UHGV virus genome: UHGV-0197807
Length of the DNA: 11,600 bases
Reading direction: 5' to 3' (one strand)
Origin: a virus
Positions 1 through 10,700 of this stretch are shown one piece after another; positions within the stretch are counted from its first letter, which is position 1, and each line of letters starts with the position of its first letter. The position numbers and the translations under genes are program-made. The notes under the pieces are model-generated. The model was not told where the DNA came from, searched no databases, and saw only the letters and a program-made list of their open reading frames with translations.

Positions 1-228
1 CGTGGCTGTCTGGAATATGACGTCAGCGCCACCGACATCACCAGCTCGTTTATGGCTATCCGCAAGACCATGACCAGCAGCGGACGCAGTGCCACCTATG
101 AGGCCAGCCGCAGCGAGGAAGCCAGCCACGCCGACCTCGCCTGGGCGACCATGCACGCCCTGTTAAATGAGCCACTCACCGCCGGTATCAGCACCCCGCT
201 GACATCCACCATTCTGGAGTTTTACTGA
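1..228 (+). CDS. P: Terminase ATPase (large) subunit gpP, C-terminal fragment; 5' end lies outside the window
   Basis: Frame 1 is open from position 1 to TGA at 226-228 (...PLTSTILEFY*). The stop overlaps the ATG of the next gene (TGATG), typical phage coupling. Identity is by synteny only: in P2 the P-Q operon is transcribed toward cos with P immediately upstream of Q. Confidence 0.55.
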   Translation, partial: RGCLEYDVSATDITSSFMAIRKTMTSSGRSATYEASRSEEASHADLAWATMHALLNEPLTAGISTPLTSTILEFY

Positions 229-1262
229 TGAGCAAGAAAAAAGGGAAAACACCGCAACCTGCGGCAAAAAAAATGACCGCCAGCGCCCCGAAAATGGAGG
301 CATTCACCTTTGGTGAGCCGGTGCCGGTACTCGACCGGCGTGACATTCTGGATTACGTCGAGTGCATCAGTAACGGCAGATGGTATGAGCCACCGGTCAG
401 CTTTACCGGTCTGGCAAAAAGCCTGCGTGCTGCCGTGCATCACAGCTCGCCGATTTACGTCAAACGCAATATTCTGGCGTCGACATTTATCCCGCATCCG
501 TGGCTTTCCCAGCAGGATTTCAGCCGCTTTGTGCTGGATTTTCTGGTGTTCGGTAATGCGTTTCTGGAAAAGCGATACAGCACCACCGGTAAGGTCATCA
601 GACTGGAAACCTCACCGGCAAAATATACCCGCCGTGGCGTGGAGGAGGATGTTTACTGGTGGGTGCCGTCCTTCAACGAGCCGACACCTTTCGCGCCCGG
701 CTCCGTGTTTCACCTGCTGGAGCCGGATATTAATCAGGAGCTGTACGGTCTGCCGGAATATCTCAGCGCCCTTAACTCTGCCTGGCTGAATGAGTCGGCC
801 ACGCTGTTCCGCCGCAAGTATTACGAAAACGGCGCACATGCCGGATACATCATGTACGTCACCGATGCCGTGCAGGATCGCAACGATATCGAAATGCTCC
901 GCGAAAACATGGTGAAGTCGAAAGGCCGCAACAACTTTAAAAACCTGTTTCTCTATGCCCCACAGGGGAAAGCTGACGGCATTAAAATTATTCCGCTCAG
1001 TGAAGTGGCAACGAAGGACGATTTTTTTAATATCAAAAAAGCCAGCGCCGCTGACCTGCTGGATGCGCACCGCATCCCCTTTCAGTTGATGGGCGGCAAG
1101 CCGGAGAACGTCGGGTCGCTGGGCGATATTGAGAAAGTGGCAAAGGTCTTTGTCCGCAATGAGCTTATCCCGCTACAAGACAGGATTCGGGAAATAAACG
1201 GCTGGCTCGGTCAGGAGGTCATCCGCTTTAAAAACTACTCACTGGACACTGACAACGACTGA
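228..1262 (+). CDS. Q: Portal (capsid portal) protein gpQ
   Basis: 344-aa ORF starting MSKKKGKTPQPAAKKMTA; length and N-terminus match my recollection of P2 gpQ (344 aa). Sits between the P fragment and cos as in P2; a rho-independent terminator follows directly. Confidence 0.9.
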   Translation: MSKKKGKTPQPAAKKMTASAPKMEAFTFGEPVPVLDRRDILDYVECISNGRWYEPPVSFTGLAKSLRAAVHHSSPIYVKRNILASTFIPHPWLSQQDFSRFVLDFLVFGNAFLEKRYSTTGKVIRLETSPAKYTRRGVEEDVYWWVPSFNEPTPFAPGSVFHLLEPDINQELYGLPEYLSALNSAWLNESATLFRRKYYENGAHAGYIMYVTDAVQDRNDIEMLRENMVKSKGRNNFKNLFLYAPQGKADGIKIIPLSEVATKDDFFNIKKASAADLLDAHRIPFQLMGGKPENVGSLGDIEKVAKVFVRNELIPLQDRIREINGWLGQEVIRFKNYSLDTDND

Positions 1263-1267
1263 ACATC

Positions 1268-1289
1268 GCCGCCTGCGGGCGGCTTTTTT
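1268..1289 (+). terminator. Rho-independent terminator downstream of Q
   Basis: GC stem gccgcc-tgcg-ggcggc (1268-1283) followed by a T6 run (1284-1289), 6 nt after the Q stop. Confidence 0.65.
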
Positions 1290-1431
1290 ACCCCCCGTCA
1301 TCACGCCCTCACACGCTCACCACCGCACAAAACATCCCGCAGACACACCAACGCCCCGGCTAACAATCTAAACGTCATCACGGCGCGCTCAGACGCTGAA
1401 AAAATAAAATCAGCACCACCGCCAGCGCGCA

Positions 1432-1450
1432 GTGCTTTCCCCGCCTCGCC
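1432..1450 (-). other. cos cohesive-end sequence (P2-type 19-nt 5' overhang)
   Basis: The + strand reads GTGCTTTCCCCGCCTCGCC, the reverse complement of GGCGAGGCGGGGAAAGCAC, which I recall as the P2 left cohesive end. Position (~170 bp past the Q stop) and orientation match the P2 map. From memory; not verified by alignment. Confidence 0.7.
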
Positions 1451-1499
1451 CGCCCGCTTCATGGGGCGATTTTAATGCAGTTGCATGATTTAGCCGAAT

Positions 1500-1688
1500 C
1501 CGCGCCATTGTTGACATTGATGTTTTGATATGGATATGGCGTAAGCATGCGAATTCATTCAAGATGATGCAAGAATGATGAAATTATGGTACAGATCGAT
1601 TAGCCATAATATGCCCCACGTTGTTACATGTGGTTCATAAGAGTTATGGCTCATAGGGATTTATACAAAATATATATAGGTAATTATC
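1500..1688 (+). promoter_or_regulatory. Putative promoter region of the AT-rich cargo operon
   Basis: Abrupt shift to AT-rich sequence immediately upstream of the first cargo ORF. TTGACA at 1511-1516, CATAAT at 1605-1610, TTGTTA at 1621-1626 and several TATA-like hexamers at 1660-1688, but no single -35/-10 pair with ideal spacing. The first gene has only a weak SD (TAGG, 1677-1680). Confidence 0.3.
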
Positions 1689-2753
1689 ATGTCAGGTGAA
1701 ACTCAAAATATTTCAGCAATGGCAGAAAAAATATCTTCAGACCTATTCAAATGGTTTAAGTGGGAACTCGTTGGTCCAACCAATGAAAACTTTCCATGCA
1801 TGAAAAAAGATCAACATAAAACACTAGCCGGAACACATCCAACTGATGTTGTATTTTCTTATAAAGATCCCTATTTGAATAGAACCATTTTTTTAAATAC
1901 TGATTTAAAAAGCTATATTAAAGGCTCAATTACAGCAACTAAAATGCGCAATGCTTTAGTATCGCTGGCTAATTCTATTGACTGTGCTCAAGGTTGTAAA
2001 GAATGGAAGGAGCGTTATTCTTATAAAAGTGGTGCGTCAGAAGTCAGAGGCATGCTCTTTGTATACAACCATGACGGAGACTTTGACCAATCTTTTTATG
2101 ATGTATTCTATCAGTCTCACAATACTGAAACTGATAAGAAGAAAAGAGGTATCAATCTTGACAATATACCGGTAAGGGTCGGTCAAAAAATACACATTAT
2201 TGAACCAAGAACTATAAACTACCTGCAGTCAATAATCTGCGATTTATCACAACTAAGCCACAAAAGAGAGTTTCCACTCGGTAAAAAATATCAATTCTTT
2301 TACCCAGACCTTTCACTACATAAAGTAAGCGGTTCGCCCGAAGAACTTCCAGCAACTGTAGAATTATTGACAGGCCCATTCCTTATTATAAAACATAATG
2401 ACGTCAGACATTGCAATGAAGAAACATCACAATGGGAAACCACATTTAAACATGGTTACATTATTTATTACAATGGCGAAGGAAAAAACGAGCTAGAGTT
2501 TATTTACATTCTGGACACACTATCTAAATATCAATTACTGGATGGCAATGAAAATATAAGAATTAGAATAGTTAACCCTAACATACATAAAGATGTTCGC
2601 AGTATTTTTATGCGTGCGAAGGATAGTTATTGTCAAGAATGGGGGTTCGATGAACATAAAAAAACGATAATAGATGCTATTGATTTTCAACAGGTAGAAT
2701 TTACAAAGCCTCGTTTTAGTTCGGTAGAGATTGGTTGGGAGCGACAGGCATGA
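1689..2753 (+). CDS. Hypothetical protein, cargo gene 1 (354 aa), no recognisable family; candidate defense component
   Basis: Long ORF in an AT-rich island with Lys/Asn/Ile-rich composition. Its stop (TGA 2751-2753) overlaps the ATG of the next gene (ATGA). No Walker A or other confident catalytic motif; a weak D...D-x-K spacing (D53/D60, D72-L-K74) is noted in the findings. Confidence 0.75.
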   Translation: MSGETQNISAMAEKISSDLFKWFKWELVGPTNENFPCMKKDQHKTLAGTHPTDVVFSYKDPYLNRTIFLNTDLKSYIKGSITATKMRNALVSLANSIDCAQGCKEWKERYSYKSGASEVRGMLFVYNHDGDFDQSFYDVFYQSHNTETDKKKRGINLDNIPVRVGQKIHIIEPRTINYLQSIICDLSQLSHKREFPLGKKYQFFYPDLSLHKVSGSPEELPATVELLTGPFLIIKHNDVRHCNEETSQWETTFKHGYIIYYNGEGKNELEFIYILDTLSKYQLLDGNENIRIRIVNPNIHKDVRSIFMRAKDSYCQEWGFDEHKKTIIDAIDFQQVEFTKPRFSSVEIGWERQA

Positions 2754-3862
2754 AAATTGGATTATATAGTGTAAATGATAAGGCAATGTTTGACGCATTG
2801 AATCAAACTAAAGTCACTCATGAAGATATGAAAAGTCTCTTTTTTAAAAGAGGAATGATTATATCCAAAGAGACTAAACGAAAAACATTGGCTTTGGATT
2901 TTTCCAGATACTATCATGGCTATTCTGATTTTGAATTTCTTTCAAACATACTCGGTTCTGTTGGGCGGAGAGAAAAAGTATCAATTAACATTATTAATAC
3001 AAATATAGATAAAAATAGTATGGAAAATACTATTAAATCTATTTGTGAAGATCTTCAAAAAGAAGGCGATATAACTAATATAAATTACACCGAGAATGGT
3101 TTTGAAGTATCAATAAAATATGTGAAACTAGATTTCAAAATGAGCGAGTTTCGCCAATCCTCATCACGTGAAGCCAAAATACAAGTTGAAATGAATGAAA
3201 GCGGTGAATTTATCACCCGTTTCCCTCAAAATGCTAAAGCAAGGGAATTCAACGAGCGCCTCGTGGAGAAGATCAAAGAAGACAACAATGAGGATCCAGC
3301 CAGTCTTGATGAGATTTCGCTCGAAACTGTTAAATCACCAGCGGAAAGAAGCAAATTTTTTGAGCAACTAATCTCAAGCATACCTAACTACAAATGCATT
3401 GACGTATCGGATGTATACGTTACGCATCCAATTCTTGAGTCAAATAAGTCTAACGAAAATGAAGATGATTCTGATGATGACGATACAATTATTGACACAG
3501 GATATCATATCTCCAAAGCTTCACTAAAAGGGCGCAGCGTTCTTGACTCTCTCGAGTTTAAGGAGTTGTTAGGAAAAGGATTTTATATTACCAAAATCAT
3601 TTGGAGTTCTGTTGTTGACACTTATAAAGACTCGGACAAATATGAATTCGAGGCTCAATTTGTCGACCCAGATAATTGCAAGTTATTCTCGTATATCGTT
3701 CGCGGTGTTTATAAGTACAAAAATATAAACGAATATGCAAATCGTCAAAATGTAGATAAAGAGAAGGAAAAACTGCTATTATTAGCACTTGAAAAAACCG
3801 CTCGCGAAATTTCAAACAGTATTATCGCCTCCAACACAATTGAGGTTGTTACTGATAAATAA
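2750..3862 (+). CDS. Hypothetical protein, cargo gene 2 (370 aa from ATG 2750), contains a polyacidic tract; candidate defense component
   Basis: The ORF track begins at TTG 2735, but ATG 2750 is preceded by GGGAG (2737-2741) and overlaps the upstream stop, so I place the start there. Contains ENEDDSDDDD (DNA ~3455-3484). No nucleotide-binding or nuclease motif recognised. Confidence 0.75.
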   Translation: MKIGLYSVNDKAMFDALNQTKVTHEDMKSLFFKRGMIISKETKRKTLALDFSRYYHGYSDFEFLSNILGSVGRREKVSINIINTNIDKNSMENTIKSICEDLQKEGDITNINYTENGFEVSIKYVKLDFKMSEFRQSSSREAKIQVEMNESGEFITRFPQNAKAREFNERLVEKIKEDNNEDPASLDEISLETVKSPAERSKFFEQLISSIPNYKCIDVSDVYVTHPILESNKSNENEDDSDDDDTIIDTGYHISKASLKGRSVLDSLEFKELLGKGFYITKIIWSSVVDTYKDSDKYEFEAQFVDPDNCKLFSYIVRGVYKYKNINEYANRQNVDKEKEKLLLLALEKTAREISNSIIASNTIEVVTDK

Positions 3863-3873
3863 AAGGAGTTGTT

Positions 3874-4545
3874 ATGAAAACAAAATGGTTTACTGCCAAC
3901 TTCCCTGCTGGACTTGATAGTTTATATCAGTCTATCATTAACACTCCTTTTGATAGTGATAAAGGCTGGGGATTTAGTATCAACTCATATGAAGAAAATG
4001 CAATATCATCTCGATACATCGAGAAAGTAGAGGTCAACGAGATAATCGTTGATCCATATGGAAACGAGACTCAATATACACAGCTAAAATATATTCAATT
4101 TAACTTTTGGCTTTACACAACAAAAGGTAAAAACTTCATCTTAATCATTGAGTCGCCTCCCAGAAGCATTAAGAACTTCATATCAAACATAATTAAATCA
4201 ACACATTCTGATTTTAATGTGTCAAATCTCAACATCAAAATTGAGGACTTCATTTATTTCCTGACCCCGCACTTTGAAAAAATACAAGTGCACAAGGCAA
4301 AATTAAAAGACTTAACGTTTAGCAAACACACATCCGGCATACTGGAACTTGAGTCATCAAGTGACGCACTTATGGAAATAAGAAACATTTTCAAAAATGC
4401 AAATTTTACAATTGATAAAGTTAAACTTAATGTTAAGGACGTTACCGGTTATGAGTCATTAGAAATTAACACAAATGGGTCCATTTCACTTTCAGAGCAA
4501 ATTTTTGACAAGGTGTATCGAACCATAGAAAGGTTTGCCCTTTAA
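3874..4545 (+). CDS. Hypothetical protein, cargo gene 3 (223 aa), no recognisable family; candidate defense component
   Basis: ATG 3874 is preceded by a strong SD AAGGAG (3862-3867), 11 nt after the cargo gene 2 stop. AT-rich composition as for genes 1-2; followed by a hairpin terminator. Confidence 0.75.
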   Translation: MKTKWFTANFPAGLDSLYQSIINTPFDSDKGWGFSINSYEENAISSRYIEKVEVNEIIVDPYGNETQYTQLKYIQFNFWLYTTKGKNFILIIESPPRSIKNFISNIIKSTHSDFNVSNLNIKIEDFIYFLTPHFEKIQVHKAKLKDLTFSKHTSGILELESSSDALMEIRNIFKNANFTIDKVKLNVKDVTGYESLEINTNGSISLSEQIFDKVYRTIERFAL

Positions 4546-4582
4546 GTTAACAATACAATTCAATTCTTTTGATGTAATAAAA

Positions 4583-4620
4583 ACGGCCTCATTAAAAATG
4601 AGGCTTATCGTTTTATTATT
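4583..4620. terminator. Bidirectional rho-independent terminator between the cargo operon (+) and gene A (-)
   Basis: Perfect 8-bp stem gcctcatt/aatgaggc (4586-4593 and 4598-4605) with loop aaaa, flanked by T-rich sequence on both strands (ttatcgttttatt on +, cgttttta on -). Confidence 0.55.
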
Positions 4621-4710
4621 GTAGCCATGCCATCTGGTTTTCACCTTTTCCTCCAGCACAGTATTAATACACACCTTATATAGTTTTATCTCTTAGATAT
4701 TCACACTATT

Positions 4711-6990
4711 TCAATCTATTACAGTTGTGAACCCTGGCCATCCATCAGCGACCGGATAAGCGAATTTTTTCCCGTCATAATTTACGGTCGCGCCACGCGC
4801 CAGCGCCTCAAGCTCCCATCGCTGCGGCCTGATACCGTTCTGAGCAAGGTCAACGCGGATACGGGGAATTTGCATTCGTTCCGACCGGGTCAGTCTGGCC
4901 GATGGCGCTATTTCATGCGGTTTTAACGGGCTTCCGTTTCTTTGCTGGCGGTTTGGTCTTCTCAGTCCGTGTTTTAATGCACCCCTGAGCGCCCTCACGA
5001 CCTCCGGGTCACTCCATTCGATGACACCGTCATCAACCAGATTAAGCACTGCTGCGGCGTGCTCAGAAGGTGTGGGAGCCGGTAACGAAGTATCACCACC
5101 GGTGAGCGTTCCACAGTTATTGACAGGACTCCGAGGCGCGGCGATGCCGCTTTTTAAAGTCAAAGGCTCCACGACCGGAACTTTCGGCACAATGCGCCAG
5201 TCCGTCGTTCTGGTGATATGAATATGACGCGCGCCGAGATGCGGCGCGTAAATGCCGACCACTCTCTCGACTTCTTCCTCGTACTCGTTAACTTCATCCG
5301 ACGGACTACGGGCGACCCTGACAGTCTGACAATCGCGCGGGACATTTGCCCCACCCTGCGCGCTGATATACAGCGCAAAATCGCCACTGTCTGCGGCAGC
5401 GCGTGCAGCCTCGACACGTTCGTCAAACTCATCAGCAATGCTGACGCCGCGAGGTAATTTGCGTAGTTCACGGTAAGCCCCCATTGTCGGCAGGCCAACA
5501 GTTTTAAATTGCGGAATGCGCCACGTTGACGCCCATGCGGTAACAGCCGCGGCAGTGTCTTTCAGCGGCCTGCCGGTATCGTTATCGAGCTGACCATCCA
5601 GTGCATAGCCGTCGATGTTTTTTGAAATGTATTTCGCGATATATCCCGCAGCACCGCCCCGGTTAAGGTGTTTTGCCTGAAAACGGTTTCGCGCAGCTCC
5701 TCTTTCGTCGCTATCCTCTTTGAGCGCGTAGCGACGCATGATTTCAATAATCTGGTTACGCTGGCGTGGATTACAAAAAAGCATCATATGCCAGTGCGGC
5801 GTTCCGTCGTGGTGTGGCTCGACGACTCGCAAACCGTAGACCTGTAAATCATTATCCTTGAATGCCGTGCGCATCAGGCTCCAGATACGGCAGAGATAAC
5901 GCTGCGCATCCTTTGGATTAAATGCCTCATCGTTCCAGCCGTGATTAAGCTGGACGGTTTTACTTTCTCCTTTTCCGACCTGACGTGTCGGGTGATACTT
6001 TGACGGCGTGGTCAGCGTGATAAACATCCCCACATCACCCTCTGCGGCGGCGTAACGCTCAATACCGGCGATTGTGTTCATCAGCTCCATCCGGCGAATT
6101 TCAGGATTAGAAATACTGCCCATCACCTTACTGATAAGGTCGATGCGCTCGCCGGTTTCCCTGTTTTCGAGGTCACACGATTTAAGAAATTCCAGATTTG
6201 CCTGGCGGCGTGCACGCACATCACGAATGGCATGTTTACTGGCATAAGGAGAACGGTCTTTATTGACCTCCCCGACAGCAATCAGTAACGCCTCATGCCA
6301 GCGCATACGCTGGCCTTTGAGCTGATGAGTCCACCACTCATCGTTAAACAGACGGGCAATGGCAGAATATGCCTGCCTCGTGGTCATCTGTCCTTTACGG
6401 TATTTTTTCCAGTAAAGCGGGGAAATATTGAAAGCACGTGCAGCGCCAGCAACATGACCATAGAGGTGAGCCTGCACCTCATCCGTAAACAGCGATTCTT
6501 TTTCGCCATGTGCATCCACCCATGCATCGCTGAGTTCCTCATACATCATGAAAAGCTGCGATGAGATACGGGCGGCAAACTTTTTCAGCTCCTTGTCATT
6601 CATTCCCGGCAGGCGCGCATAGTGGTCACGCTCTGCCAGAAACAGCAACGACGCGTCGGTGTTCATTTCATGGCGCTGATTCACACGCTCAATGCGCGGC
6701 CATAAACGACGCTGAAAAGTGGATGTGAGGAAATAAAACCCGTGCACCGGGCTTTTATTGTGCAGGATGTAGTCATAGCGTGAAGTAAACAGCGAGCGCA
6801 AAAAGTAAGGCAGGCGGTTAATCGTGGATAAAACACCTTGCACCTGACGCATCTCGTCACGTGTAAGGGGTCTTTCGCGCCCGACAGCCTCGCGTGGCGC
6901 GTTCCATGCATAAGCACCGGTAAACGCCTTACCGGTGCCTGCGGCAAATGCTGACGGAGGGACAAAACGCCCGGAGGCTTTAACGTCCAT
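4711..6990 (-). CDS. A: Replication initiation protein gpA (rolling-circle HUH endonuclease)
   Basis: The ORF track gives 4711-7032 with a TTG start; ATG 6990 (MDVKASGRF...) has a GAGG SD upstream and gives 759 aa (P2 gpA is ~761 aa). HUH-type motif PHWHMMLF (H-W-H at 5788-5796) and tyrosine pair GYIAKYISK (Tyr codons at 5641-5643 and 5629-5631). Counted from ATG 6990 these are Tyr450 and Tyr454, the numbering I recall for the P2 A active-site tyrosines. Confidence 0.9.
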   Translation of the reverse strand: MDVKASGRFVPPSAFAAGTGKAFTGAYAWNAPREAVGRERPLTRDEMRQVQGVLSTINRLPYFLRSLFTSRYDYILHNKSPVHGFYFLTSTFQRRLWPRIERVNQRHEMNTDASLLFLAERDHYARLPGMNDKELKKFAARISSQLFMMYEELSDAWVDAHGEKESLFTDEVQAHLYGHVAGAARAFNISPLYWKKYRKGQMTTRQAYSAIARLFNDEWWTHQLKGQRMRWHEALLIAVGEVNKDRSPYASKHAIRDVRARRQANLEFLKSCDLENRETGERIDLISKVMGSISNPEIRRMELMNTIAGIERYAAAEGDVGMFITLTTPSKYHPTRQVGKGESKTVQLNHGWNDEAFNPKDAQRYLCRIWSLMRTAFKDNDLQVYGLRVVEPHHDGTPHWHMMLFCNPRQRNQIIEIMRRYALKEDSDERGAARNRFQAKHLNRGGAAGYIAKYISKNIDGYALDGQLDNDTGRPLKDTAAAVTAWASTWRIPQFKTVGLPTMGAYRELRKLPRGVSIADEFDERVEAARAAADSGDFALYISAQGGANVPRDCQTVRVARSPSDEVNEYEEEVERVVGIYAPHLGARHIHITRTTDWRIVPKVPVVEPLTLKSGIAAPRSPVNNCGTLTGGDTSLPAPTPSEHAAAVLNLVDDGVIEWSDPEVVRALRGALKHGLRRPNRQQRNGSPLKPHEIAPSARLTRSERMQIPRIRVDLAQNGIRPQRWELEALARGATVNYDGKKFAYPVADGWPGFTTVID

Positions 6991-7255
6991 ATGAGCCAAA
7001 AGCCTCTGAACAACGCCTGCTGAGTTGCTCAACCTGCGCGTTTAAATCGGCAAAAGATTTTGCGCTTCCGGTCAGAATATCGTGATGCATCAGGCCGGAA
7101 ACGAGCTGGCTTAATTTCGGGTAATAACCAACCACCGCCAGCCATTCCTGACCGGCGTTTTTAACGCTTTCCGCTCTCTTTTTCTCGTGGAGAATAAACT
7201 GAAAGCTGTCACTGGTAACAACATAACGTTCGCCAATTTCGATACGAATACTCAT
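6980..7255 (-). CDS. Small hypothetical protein (91 aa), P2 orf83-position
   Basis: ATG 7255 overlaps the stop of the upstream ORF (ATGA); its 3' end overlaps the start of A by ~11 nt. Last of four small translationally coupled ORFs between B and A, the same arrangement as P2 orf80-83. Function unknown. Confidence 0.6.
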   Translation of the reverse strand: MSIRIEIGERYVVTSDSFQFILHEKKRAESVKNAGQEWLAVVGYYPKLSQLVSGLMHHDILTGSAKSFADLNAQVEQLSRRCSEAFGSYGR

Positions 7256-9601: not shown

Positions 9602-10597
9602 ATGTCTATTAAAAAGCTCGATGATGGTCGTTATGAAGTGGACGTCAGACCGCAGGGTGCAGATGGAAAACGTATCAGGCGGAAATTTAAAACTAAAGGT
9701 GAAGCTCAGGCATTCGAACGTCATGTACTGGTTAACTACCACAACAAAGAGTGGTTGGAGAAACCAGCCGACCGCCGAACTCTTACAGAGTTGTTAGGTA
9801 GATGGTGGATATATCACGGAAAATCACATGAGCGTGGAGATATTGAACGGGGGCGTTTAACGACAATAATCGCCAAATTTGCAGAAATGGGAGTGTCCAG
9901 AGCTGACCAGCTAACAAAGAAAACGATAACTGATTATCGCGTTGTAATGATGAACGATGGTCTAAAACCAGCCAGCGTAAATCGACATCTGGCAATAATG
10001 AGCGGGATGTTCACCAAGTTAATTGACGCCGGTGAATACCACTCCCACAACCCGTTCCGTGATATTAAACGGTTACGTGAAGCTGTTACGGAAATGGCTT
10101 TTTTGTCCAGTGAAGAGATTACGCGGCTGTTATCCATGCTTGATGGTGATGAATTAAATGCAACTCTGGTCTGCCTTTCTACTGGTGGACGCTGGAGTGA
10201 AGTGTCTAATTTAAAAGCTGAACACATCATTAACCAGATGGTTACGTTTATGAAAACTAAAAACGGAAAACGCAGGACAATTCCCGTTTCGCAGGACCTG
10301 ATTAAACGGATCAAGACCAAAAATTCAGGCAGGCTTTTTAATGCCAGTTACTACAAAGTGCGTAACGCTCTCAGGGAAGTAAAACCCGATTTACCTGACG
10401 GACAAGCAGTACATGTTTTGAGGCATACATTTGCCACACATTTTATAATGAATGGAGGTAACATAATCACATTGCAGCGCATCCTGGGTCATTCTAACAT
10501 TCAGCAAACTATGACCTACGCACACTTTGCACCGGATTTCTTACAAGATGCTGTGACTCTTAACCCGGTGTCAGGAATGTCCATAATGCGTCCATAA
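9602..10597 (+). CDS. int: Tyrosine integrase (P2-type site-specific recombinase)
   Basis: 331-aa ORF with SD GGAGGG 6 nt upstream. C-terminal catalytic signature HVLRHTFATHF...LGHSNIQQTMTYAHF (H-x-x-R and the nucleophilic Tyr). Lies downstream of C on the same strand, adjacent to the chromosomal junction, as in P2. Confidence 0.95.
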   Translation: MSIKKLDDGRYEVDVRPQGADGKRIRRKFKTKGEAQAFERHVLVNYHNKEWLEKPADRRTLTELLGRWWIYHGKSHERGDIERGRLTTIIAKFAEMGVSRADQLTKKTITDYRVVMMNDGLKPASVNRHLAIMSGMFTKLIDAGEYHSHNPFRDIKRLREAVTEMAFLSSEEITRLLSMLDGDELNATLVCLSTGGRWSEVSNLKAEHIINQMVTFMKTKNGKRRTIPVSQDLIKRIKTKNSGRLFNASYYKVRNALREVKPDLPDGQAVHVLRHTFATHFIMNGGNIITLQRILGHSNIQQTMTYAHFAPDFLQDAVTLNPVSGMSIMRP

Positions 10598-10700
10598 ACC
10601 AGAGTTAACTAGAGCCAATTGAAGCGATATGAGTAATTTAACTAATTGTAATACAACAGAAAATACCGCTACGGCGGGGGCTACCAAGTCAGTTATTGGT
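10598..10700. other. Prophage-chromosome junction; attachment core not resolvable from this window
   Basis: The int stop (10597) lies 31 bp before the first in-frame ATG of the pflA ORF, and the pflA 5' end differs from the canonical one (see findings), so the junction must be here. The core cannot be delimited without the other prophage end or an empty-site sequence. Confidence 0.3.

Follow-up and report, generated by a model that had tools for sequence, protein, structure and literature searches.

The DNA analyzed here, referred to as the window, is a stretch of 11,600 nucleotides from the UHGV virus genome UHGV-0197807, in which three consecutive genes (1689-4545) encode the proteins named Hp1, Hp2 and Hp3 below. 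Judged from sequence comparisons, this locus is very probably an instance of the known defence system 3HP (Rst_3HP; Hp1-Hp2-Hp3), carried as variable cargo in the hotspot between cos and gene A of a P2-like prophage. This hotspot, located between cos/Q and gene A, was described by Rousset et al. (2022, Cell Host Microbe; PMC9122126), and an operon designated 'hp + hp + hp' was cloned from the P2 hotspot of Escherichia coli E1114 as plasmid pFR109, with its protein sequences given in Table S2A (PMC9122126). The E1114 operon protects against P1, and only against P1 among eight phages, and 3HP as published has no assigned domains or mechanism (PMC9122126). Furthermore, no mechanistic study of 3HP was found in the searched literature, where the matches were mainly tuberculosis papers on '3HP' along with a few genome surveys.

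The locus is assigned to 3HP because its proteins match the PADLOC models of Hp1, Hp2 and Hp3, because they are collinear homologues of the E1114 proteins and because the accessions of an identical locus are already listed for the hotspot. The PADLOC models were matched at 2e-63 (Hp1), 3.6e-37 (Hp2) and 6e-8 (Hp3), near full length for Hp1 and Hp2 and over profile positions 3-199 of 227 for Hp3. In BLASTP against the E1114 proteins, the identities were 36% for Hp1 (E 5e-68), 31% for Hp2 (2e-39) and 19% for Hp3 (1e-10), and broad hidden Markov models (HMMs) of the three families matched the E1114 proteins at 4e-108, 5e-108 and 1.5e-41, respectively. At one identical E. coli locus, the RefSeq accessions are WP_024160514, WP_001398851 and WP_032238998, a trio that constitutes a P2 hotspot locus in Table S5 of Rousset et al. 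(PMC9122126); the protein of gene 1 carries the RefSeq name 'PD-(D/E)XK nuclease domain-containing protein'. The locus is present in 10 of 5,426 complete E. coli genomes, and nine other E. coli genomes carry it at 99.1-100% nucleotide identity. Every testable defining feature of 3HP was found in the locus. Gene order and position in the P2 hotspot between cos/Q and gene A are those of E1114, with homology of all three proteins, whereas the clade of the window locus is a diverged one, with an Hp1 that shares 41-51% identity with Hp1 from chromosomal, integrative and conjugative element (ICE) and other loci of Vibrio, Pseudomonas and Burkholderiales, compared with 36% for E1114 Hp1. The phage challenge data come from the E1114 system, whereas the window variant is known from its sequence.

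The first-pass annotation of this DNA had regarded the operon as novel and not assignable to a described family, a view that it tied to the three proteins lacking clear homology to a characterized system. Such homology exists for all three, and the claim of novelty is withdrawn in view of the PADLOC matches and the gene-for-gene homology to the validated 3HP system. The hotspot and the exact trio were catalogued in 2022, and the finding is thus already known; a standard PADLOC or DefenseFinder run would label the locus 3HP. Also mistaken was the statement that no nuclease signature was visible, since Hp1 contains a canonical PD-(D/E)xK motif (D53 ... D72-L-K74). The present results support the interpretation of the operon as a single three-gene unit, and as defence cargo that a P2-like prophage acquired horizontally in its old/tin hotspot.

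Other searches of the three proteins gave little. Pfam-A and NCBIfam scans returned sub-threshold noise only, which in the case of Hp1 and Pfam is because the scanned copy did not contain the PF26115 model. The PHROGs search yielded only the families 7059, 6531 and 5850 of unknown function, and a PDB profile search with the Hp1 sequence gave nothing meaningful. None of the searches made with the three proteins matched Old, which is an ATPase/OLD-family (Toprim) nuclease, or Tin, a single protein by which T-even phages are excluded. The trio shares with old and tin the slot and the role, namely the prophage-encoded exclusion of other phages, but not homology.

Whether the three genes form a conserved unit was addressed by a scan of 80 loci in Gamma- and Betaproteobacteria, with one genome per species, in which open reading frames (ORFs) were searched with HMMs. 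In all 75 of the loci with enough downstream sequence, Hp1, Hp2 and Hp3 were intact and followed one another in the order of the window on one strand, with genes that abut or overlap; the six loci without Hp3 were all cut by contig ends. The three-gene architecture is obligate. Nonsynonymous divergence (dN, 0.08-0.41) was far below synonymous divergence (dS, 1.4-2.5 or saturated), and the trio is under purifying selection. Decayed or non-coding ORFs were ruled out by the intact reading frames, the nine further E. coli genomes and the excess of dS over dN, and chance ORFs by the recurrence of the same trio in 75 of 75 loci together with the same excess.

The family extends well beyond P2-like prophages. 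Hp2 alone comprises 619 representative clusters at E <= 1e-3 in a library of 1.84 billion proteins, and P2-type Q or A flanks were present at only three or four of the 80 loci. In V. parahaemolyticus (JANFRQ010000099, 4937-7761), the trio is flanked by a RecT/SSB/YqaJ recombination module with an Endonuclease_1 gene on one side and by the conjugation genes TraN/TraU on the other, a site that looks like an SXT/R391-type ICE cargo slot. Pseudomonas phage 54-4 (OR621021), a Pf-like filamentous phage (Tubulavirales), carries a full trio of 325, 374 and 223 amino acids at 485-3252 (HMM E values of 6e-86, 2e-105 and 9e-36) beside a repressor and an excisionase, and its third gene was annotated by the depositor as 'RdgC-like exonuclease'. 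Many of the Pseudomonas loci of the scan may be of this Pf-like phage kind. The occurrence of the trio in P2-like prophages, an SXT-like ICE and a Pf-like filamentous phage characterizes it as a widely exchanged cargo module. On a JGI metagenome contig (L084, 276-1717), MUG113 (GIY-YIG-like) and HNH_2 endonuclease genes precede the trio, and this neighbourhood may be a defence island.

An indication of how 3HP may function comes from GAPS4, a two-gene system consisting of GAPS4a and GAPS4b (Mahata et al., bioRxiv 10.1101/2023.03.28.534373). GAPS4 forms a 2:2 complex in which the GAPS4b subunits were predicted by AlphaFold3 to form a ring; its DNase is activated by linear or broken DNA, DNA breaks being the trigger, and the system is abortive, requires the Asp within an HGxD...SxK motif, turns toxic to its own cell when DNA is damaged and, in the case of GAPS4 RiKo, acts on a broad range of phages (10.1101/2025.09.07.674715). 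The GAPS4a and GAPS4b sequences used here were taken from the AlphaFold3 mmCIF file in the supplement of that preprint, which mentions neither 3HP nor RdgC and whose supplements do not contain the window accessions (10.1101/2025.09.07.674715). A second GAPS4 pair (308 and 386 amino acids, motif HGID...SAK) was located on the Pantoea alfalfae plasmid NZ_CP082297 (3067-5143), with phmmer matches to the Vibrio GAPS4 proteins at 1.6e-34 and 3.3e-33. No third co-oriented gene is present at this Pantoea locus. Its neighbours are an IS110 transposase, ArdA, a DNA methyltransferase and a DUF2971 gene.

From its sequence, Hp1 is a PD-(D/E)xK nuclease with the canonical D ... D-x-K arrangement and a predicted DNase. 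Residues H50, P51, D53, D60, D72, K74 and S75 are invariant in 126 homologues, and the Hp1 homologues listed carry Pfam PF26115 (PDDEXK_GAPS4), with the exception of one entry of 231 amino acids. Profile-profile comparison of GAPS4a with Hp1 in hhalign gave a probability of 97.4% and an E value of 9.8e-12 over 298 columns; the Hp1 HMM matched Pantoea GAPS4a at 1.6e-10, and Pantoea GAPS4a in turn matched many Hp1 proteins. On these alignments, the full-length homology between Hp1 and GAPS4a is solid. H50 and D53 of Hp1 align with H56 and D59 of GAPS4a, and the mutation D59A in GAPS4a abolishes GAPS4 defence (10.1101/2025.09.07.674715).

Hp2 is probably a remote homologue of GAPS4b, a relationship that becomes apparent only when broader profiles are used on both sides. 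The hhalign profile-profile comparison gave a probability of 93.1% and an E value of 3.1e-7 over 248 columns. In a set of 2,915 sequences, GAPS4b matched only proteins of the Hp2 family, and in BLASTP it matched one Hp2-family member that is itself encoded in a trio (P0327) at 2e-7. The comparison of GAPS4b with Hp3 in hhalign was not significant, and Hp3 is thus not a split-off piece of GAPS4b that can be recognized from the sequence. The two systems have further features in common, since in both the nuclease gene comes first, the genes are tightly coupled or overlapping and the products have sizes of ∼320-350 and 370-380 amino acids. However, Hp3 is obligatory in 3HP and GAPS4 has no third gene, and the identity in the aligned segments is 24% or lower. 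The locus is not a strict member of GAPS4, because it has neither the architecture of two genes, or of an a-b fusion, nor the HGxD...SxK motif; by these sequence comparisons, it is a homologous three-component relative. In view of these results, 3HP and GAPS4 may best be regarded as members of a single superfamily.

The structures of Hp2 and Hp3 were examined as predicted monomer models. In these models, both proteins have an RdgC/Iml3-like fold, as judged against the crystal structures of RdgC from E. coli (2OWL) and P. aeruginosa (2OWY); the same fold is found in Iml3-Chl4/CENP-L-N and in lambda RexA. RdgC modulates recombination mediated by RecA and forms dimeric rings with a basic pore in which DNA is bound; Iml3-Chl4 is an unequal heterodimer of this fold that is located on DNA (PMC11077077). 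RexA serves as the sensor in the Rex exclusion system and is believed to detect DNA-protein intermediates of phages (PMC11077077). Unlike RdgC, Hp3 is shorter (223 versus ∼300 amino acids) and Hp2 has an additional N-terminal helical domain (residues 10-68 in the model) and an acidic loop; furthermore, no effect on RecA is known for Hp2 or Hp3. The sequence of the Hp2 loop (residues 230-247) varies but its acidity is retained, with a net charge of at least 4 acidic in 89% of 217 homologues, and the loop may be a DNA-mimic autoinhibitory element. No sequence match to Hp2 or Hp3 was obtained in Pfam, NCBIfam or PDB, so neither belongs to the RdgC family by sequence. Hp2 and Hp3 were also considered as sequence paralogues, a relationship that was rejected as their hhalign comparison was not significant. 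A short 'K-A-x-L-K-G/D' string occurs at residues 252-261 of Hp2 (HISKASLKG, at the start of the second beta-rich domain) and at residues 139-147 of Hp3 (VHKAKLKDL), and GAPS4b has IKDLKLKG at the aligned position; the string is too short to serve as evidence of paralogy.

By analogy, 3HP probably works like GAPS4, and for a DNase triggered by DNA in the manner of GAPS4 we see a slightly better than even chance. In this mechanism, Hp1 would be the PD-(D/E)xK DNase effector, held in a complex by Hp2 in the same way as GAPS4a is held by GAPS4b, and Hp2 and Hp3 would jointly make up the DNA-sensing module, possibly as a heterodimeric ring or horseshoe resembling Iml3-Chl4. Engagement of this sensor by linear or broken DNA, such as injected phage DNA, would release the Hp1 nuclease, which would degrade the phage DNA and probably also the host DNA, so that the infection would be halted either directly or abortively. 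A possible role of the acidic Hp2 loop, which is conserved, is that of an autoinhibitory mimic of DNA. The DNA-break trigger and the 2:2 stoichiometry are established in GAPS4; for 3HP, we infer complex formation, the trigger and the target. The homology of Hp1 and Hp2 to GAPS4a and GAPS4b, the RdgC folds and the invariant third gene thus lead to a testable model of a DNase that is licensed by DNA ends or breaks. A more specific version, which we put forward tentatively and regard as doubtful, is that 3HP is a three-component offshoot of GAPS4 in which Hp2 and Hp3, as an asymmetric heterodimer analogous to the eukaryotic Iml3-Chl4, have taken the place of the GAPS4b homodimer ring; this heterodimer would cradle DNA ends or thread onto them and license a single Hp1, with the acidic loop as DNA-mimic autoinhibitor. 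If true, this version would bring together two defence systems that have been named separately and would establish a class of 'RdgC-fold DNA-end sensors' that includes lambda RexA. A link between 3HP, GAPS4 and the RdgC fold was not found in the searched literature.

Several observations weigh against the proposed identity and mechanism. The window variant is only 36, 31 and 19% identical to the validated E1114 system, which itself acted on P1 only in the eight-phage panel. The motif of Hp1 is HPxD...DxK in 126 of 126 sequences, compared with HGxD...SxK in GAPS4; the two motifs share the His, the first Asp and the Lys but differ in that Hp1 has Pro in place of Gly and Asp in place of Ser. Single-sequence BLASTP of Hp2 against GAPS4b was not significant, and an alignment of 46 Hp2 sequences gave a weak hhalign match to the single GAPS4b sequence (E 0.056, 54 residues). 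The broad Hp2 HMM matched Vibrio GAPS4b at 4e-6 with a high composition bias and missed Pantoea GAPS4b (0.07). Furthermore, the likeness to RdgC rests on AlphaFold models, with no signal in the sequences, and both Hp2 and Hp3 are acidic overall (isoelectric points of 5.1 and 6.1, respectively), so that a basic DNA-binding surface is only presumed.

The part played by Hp3 can be read in another way. Hp1 and Hp2 alone could form a GAPS4-like 2:2 complex around a homodimeric Hp2 ring, and Hp3 would then lie outside the ring as a regulatory subunit, namely an RdgC-like inhibitor or 'safety catch' or else an adaptor that sets trigger specificity, by which the DNase is kept inactive before infection. 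GAPS4 functions with two genes and a predicted GAPS4b homodimer ring, the Pantoea GAPS4 locus has no third gene and no similarity of the Hp3 sequence to Hp2 or GAPS4b was detected, all of which agree with such a regulator; moreover, the self-toxicity of GAPS4 on DNA damage would make an added brake adaptive for a prophage. However, Hp3 was never lost in the 75 loci, and it shares the RdgC/Iml3-like fold with Hp2, for which Iml3-Chl4 provides a precedent of an unequal heterodimer. We consider Hp3 unlikely to be a regulator of this kind.

Another reading concerns the trigger. Instead of generic DNA ends, 3HP might sense a specific phage protein or an intermediate of replication or recombination, for example of P1, so that the likeness to GAPS4 would extend to the nuclease scaffold only. 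The restriction of the E1114 system to P1 among eight phages, in comparison with the broad range of GAPS4 RiKo, would be explained in this way, although a narrow range can also stem from how strongly the system is expressed or from counter-defences of the phages. In addition, 3HP deviates from GAPS4 in its catalytic motif and in having a third gene, and among the proteins of the RdgC fold, RdgC itself influences recombination by RecA and RexA is believed to detect DNA-protein intermediates of phages. Nevertheless, the homology to GAPS4 is full length for Hp1 and covers ∼250 residues of Hp2, and both accessory proteins have a fold that binds DNA nonspecifically, which makes a specific trigger improbable. 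It was also considered whether the operon primarily serves the prophage or mobile element itself, for instance by controlling recombination, by excluding P4-like satellites or by helping to maintain the element, rather than defending the host. RdgC is a recombination modulator, and the trio lies beside RecT/SSB/YqaJ in the SXT-like ICE and beside a repressor and an excisionase in the Pf-like phage, but these ICE and Pf-like sites are known slots for defence cargo. The homologous E1114 trio conferred phage resistance when cloned alone on a plasmid and the related GAPS4 is a demonstrated defence system, and such a non-defence role is very improbable. Host defence by a DNase licensed by DNA is the reading favoured here.

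The features of the locus are collected in Table 1. The layout given by the first-pass annotation was confirmed by the ORF coordinates, namely three tightly linked genes on the + strand with the predicted lengths, placed between cos and gene A and convergent with the latter; the ATGA overlap of genes 1 and 2 (2750-2753) and the 11-nt gap with a strong Shine-Dalgarno sequence before gene 3 are likewise present in the sequence. The length of Hp2 is counted from ATG, and an alternative upstream TTG start is possible at 2735. The AT-richness of the genes against GC-balanced flanks also held: the G+C fraction is 0.35 in Hp1, 0.34 in Hp2 and 0.34 in Hp3 (∼0.34 overall) and 0.29-0.39 over ∼1600-4700, compared with 0.50-0.58 in the portal and gene A flanks. 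The insert starts just past the backbone string '...ttttaatgca', which is also the end of the backbone in the P2 old-tin clone, and ends at the stop of gene A.

Table 1. Features of the 3HP locus and its flanks, with positions in the window.
Feature	Position	Strand	Basis or remark
Portal gene Q, P2-type, left hotspot flank	228..1262	+	ORF; 'phage portal protein' annotation in identical locus
P2 cos cohesive-end 19-mer, GGCGAGGCGGGGAAAGCAC on - strand	1432..1450	-	Same string in P2/P4 clones, Rousset Table S2A
Low-GC cargo insert of P2 hotspot	1481..4710	.	GC profile; boundary versus P2 old-tin clone
11-nt inverted repeat ATTAGCCATAA / TTATGGCTCAT, 34 nt between arms	1599..1654	.	AT-rich leader, 35 nt upstream of Hp1 start
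Hp1, PD-(D/E)xK nuclease, 354 amino acids, 41 kDa, predicted effector	1689..2753	+	PADLOC, E1114 homology, PF26115, hhalign versus GAPS4a
Hp1 catalytic-motif codons, H50-P-T-D53 ... D72-L-K74-S75	1836..1910	+	Invariant residues; H50/D53 align with GAPS4a H56/D59
Hp2, 370 amino acids, 43 kDa, N-terminal helical domain then RdgC-like double domain; predicted DNA sensor/scaffold	2750..3862	+	
Hp2 disordered acidic loop, residues 230-247, ESNKSNENEDDSDDDDTI	3437..3490	+	Predicted local distance difference test (pLDDT) < 50
Shine-Dalgarno AAGGAG of gene 3	3863..3868	+	
Hp3, 223 amino acids, 26 kDa, RdgC/Iml3-like two-domain protein (model)	3874..4545	+	Component without GAPS4 counterpart
Bidirectional terminator-like hairpin, between Hp3 stop and gene A stop	4585..4605	.	
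Replication endonuclease gene A, P2-type, right hotspot flank, convergent with trio	4711..7032	-	

The inverted repeat in the leader could be an operator or a leader hairpin, and a sigma-70 promoter scan upstream of gene 1 gave no convincing candidate. No RNA gene was detected in the window by Rfam and tRNA scans. Towards the far end of the window, the prophage integrase gene ends at 10597 and is followed by the int-pflA junction (10597-10700), where the pflA region reads AAG TCA GTT ATT GGT. The native pflA start, which we take to be ATG TCA GTT, would thus have been lost from the host frame; the longest pflA ORF now begins at a prophage-derived ATG at 10629, with 19 additional codons. The int-pflA junction is present in 405 of the 5,426 complete E. 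coli genomes and the 3HP trio in 10, which is consistent with variable cargo at the hotspot.

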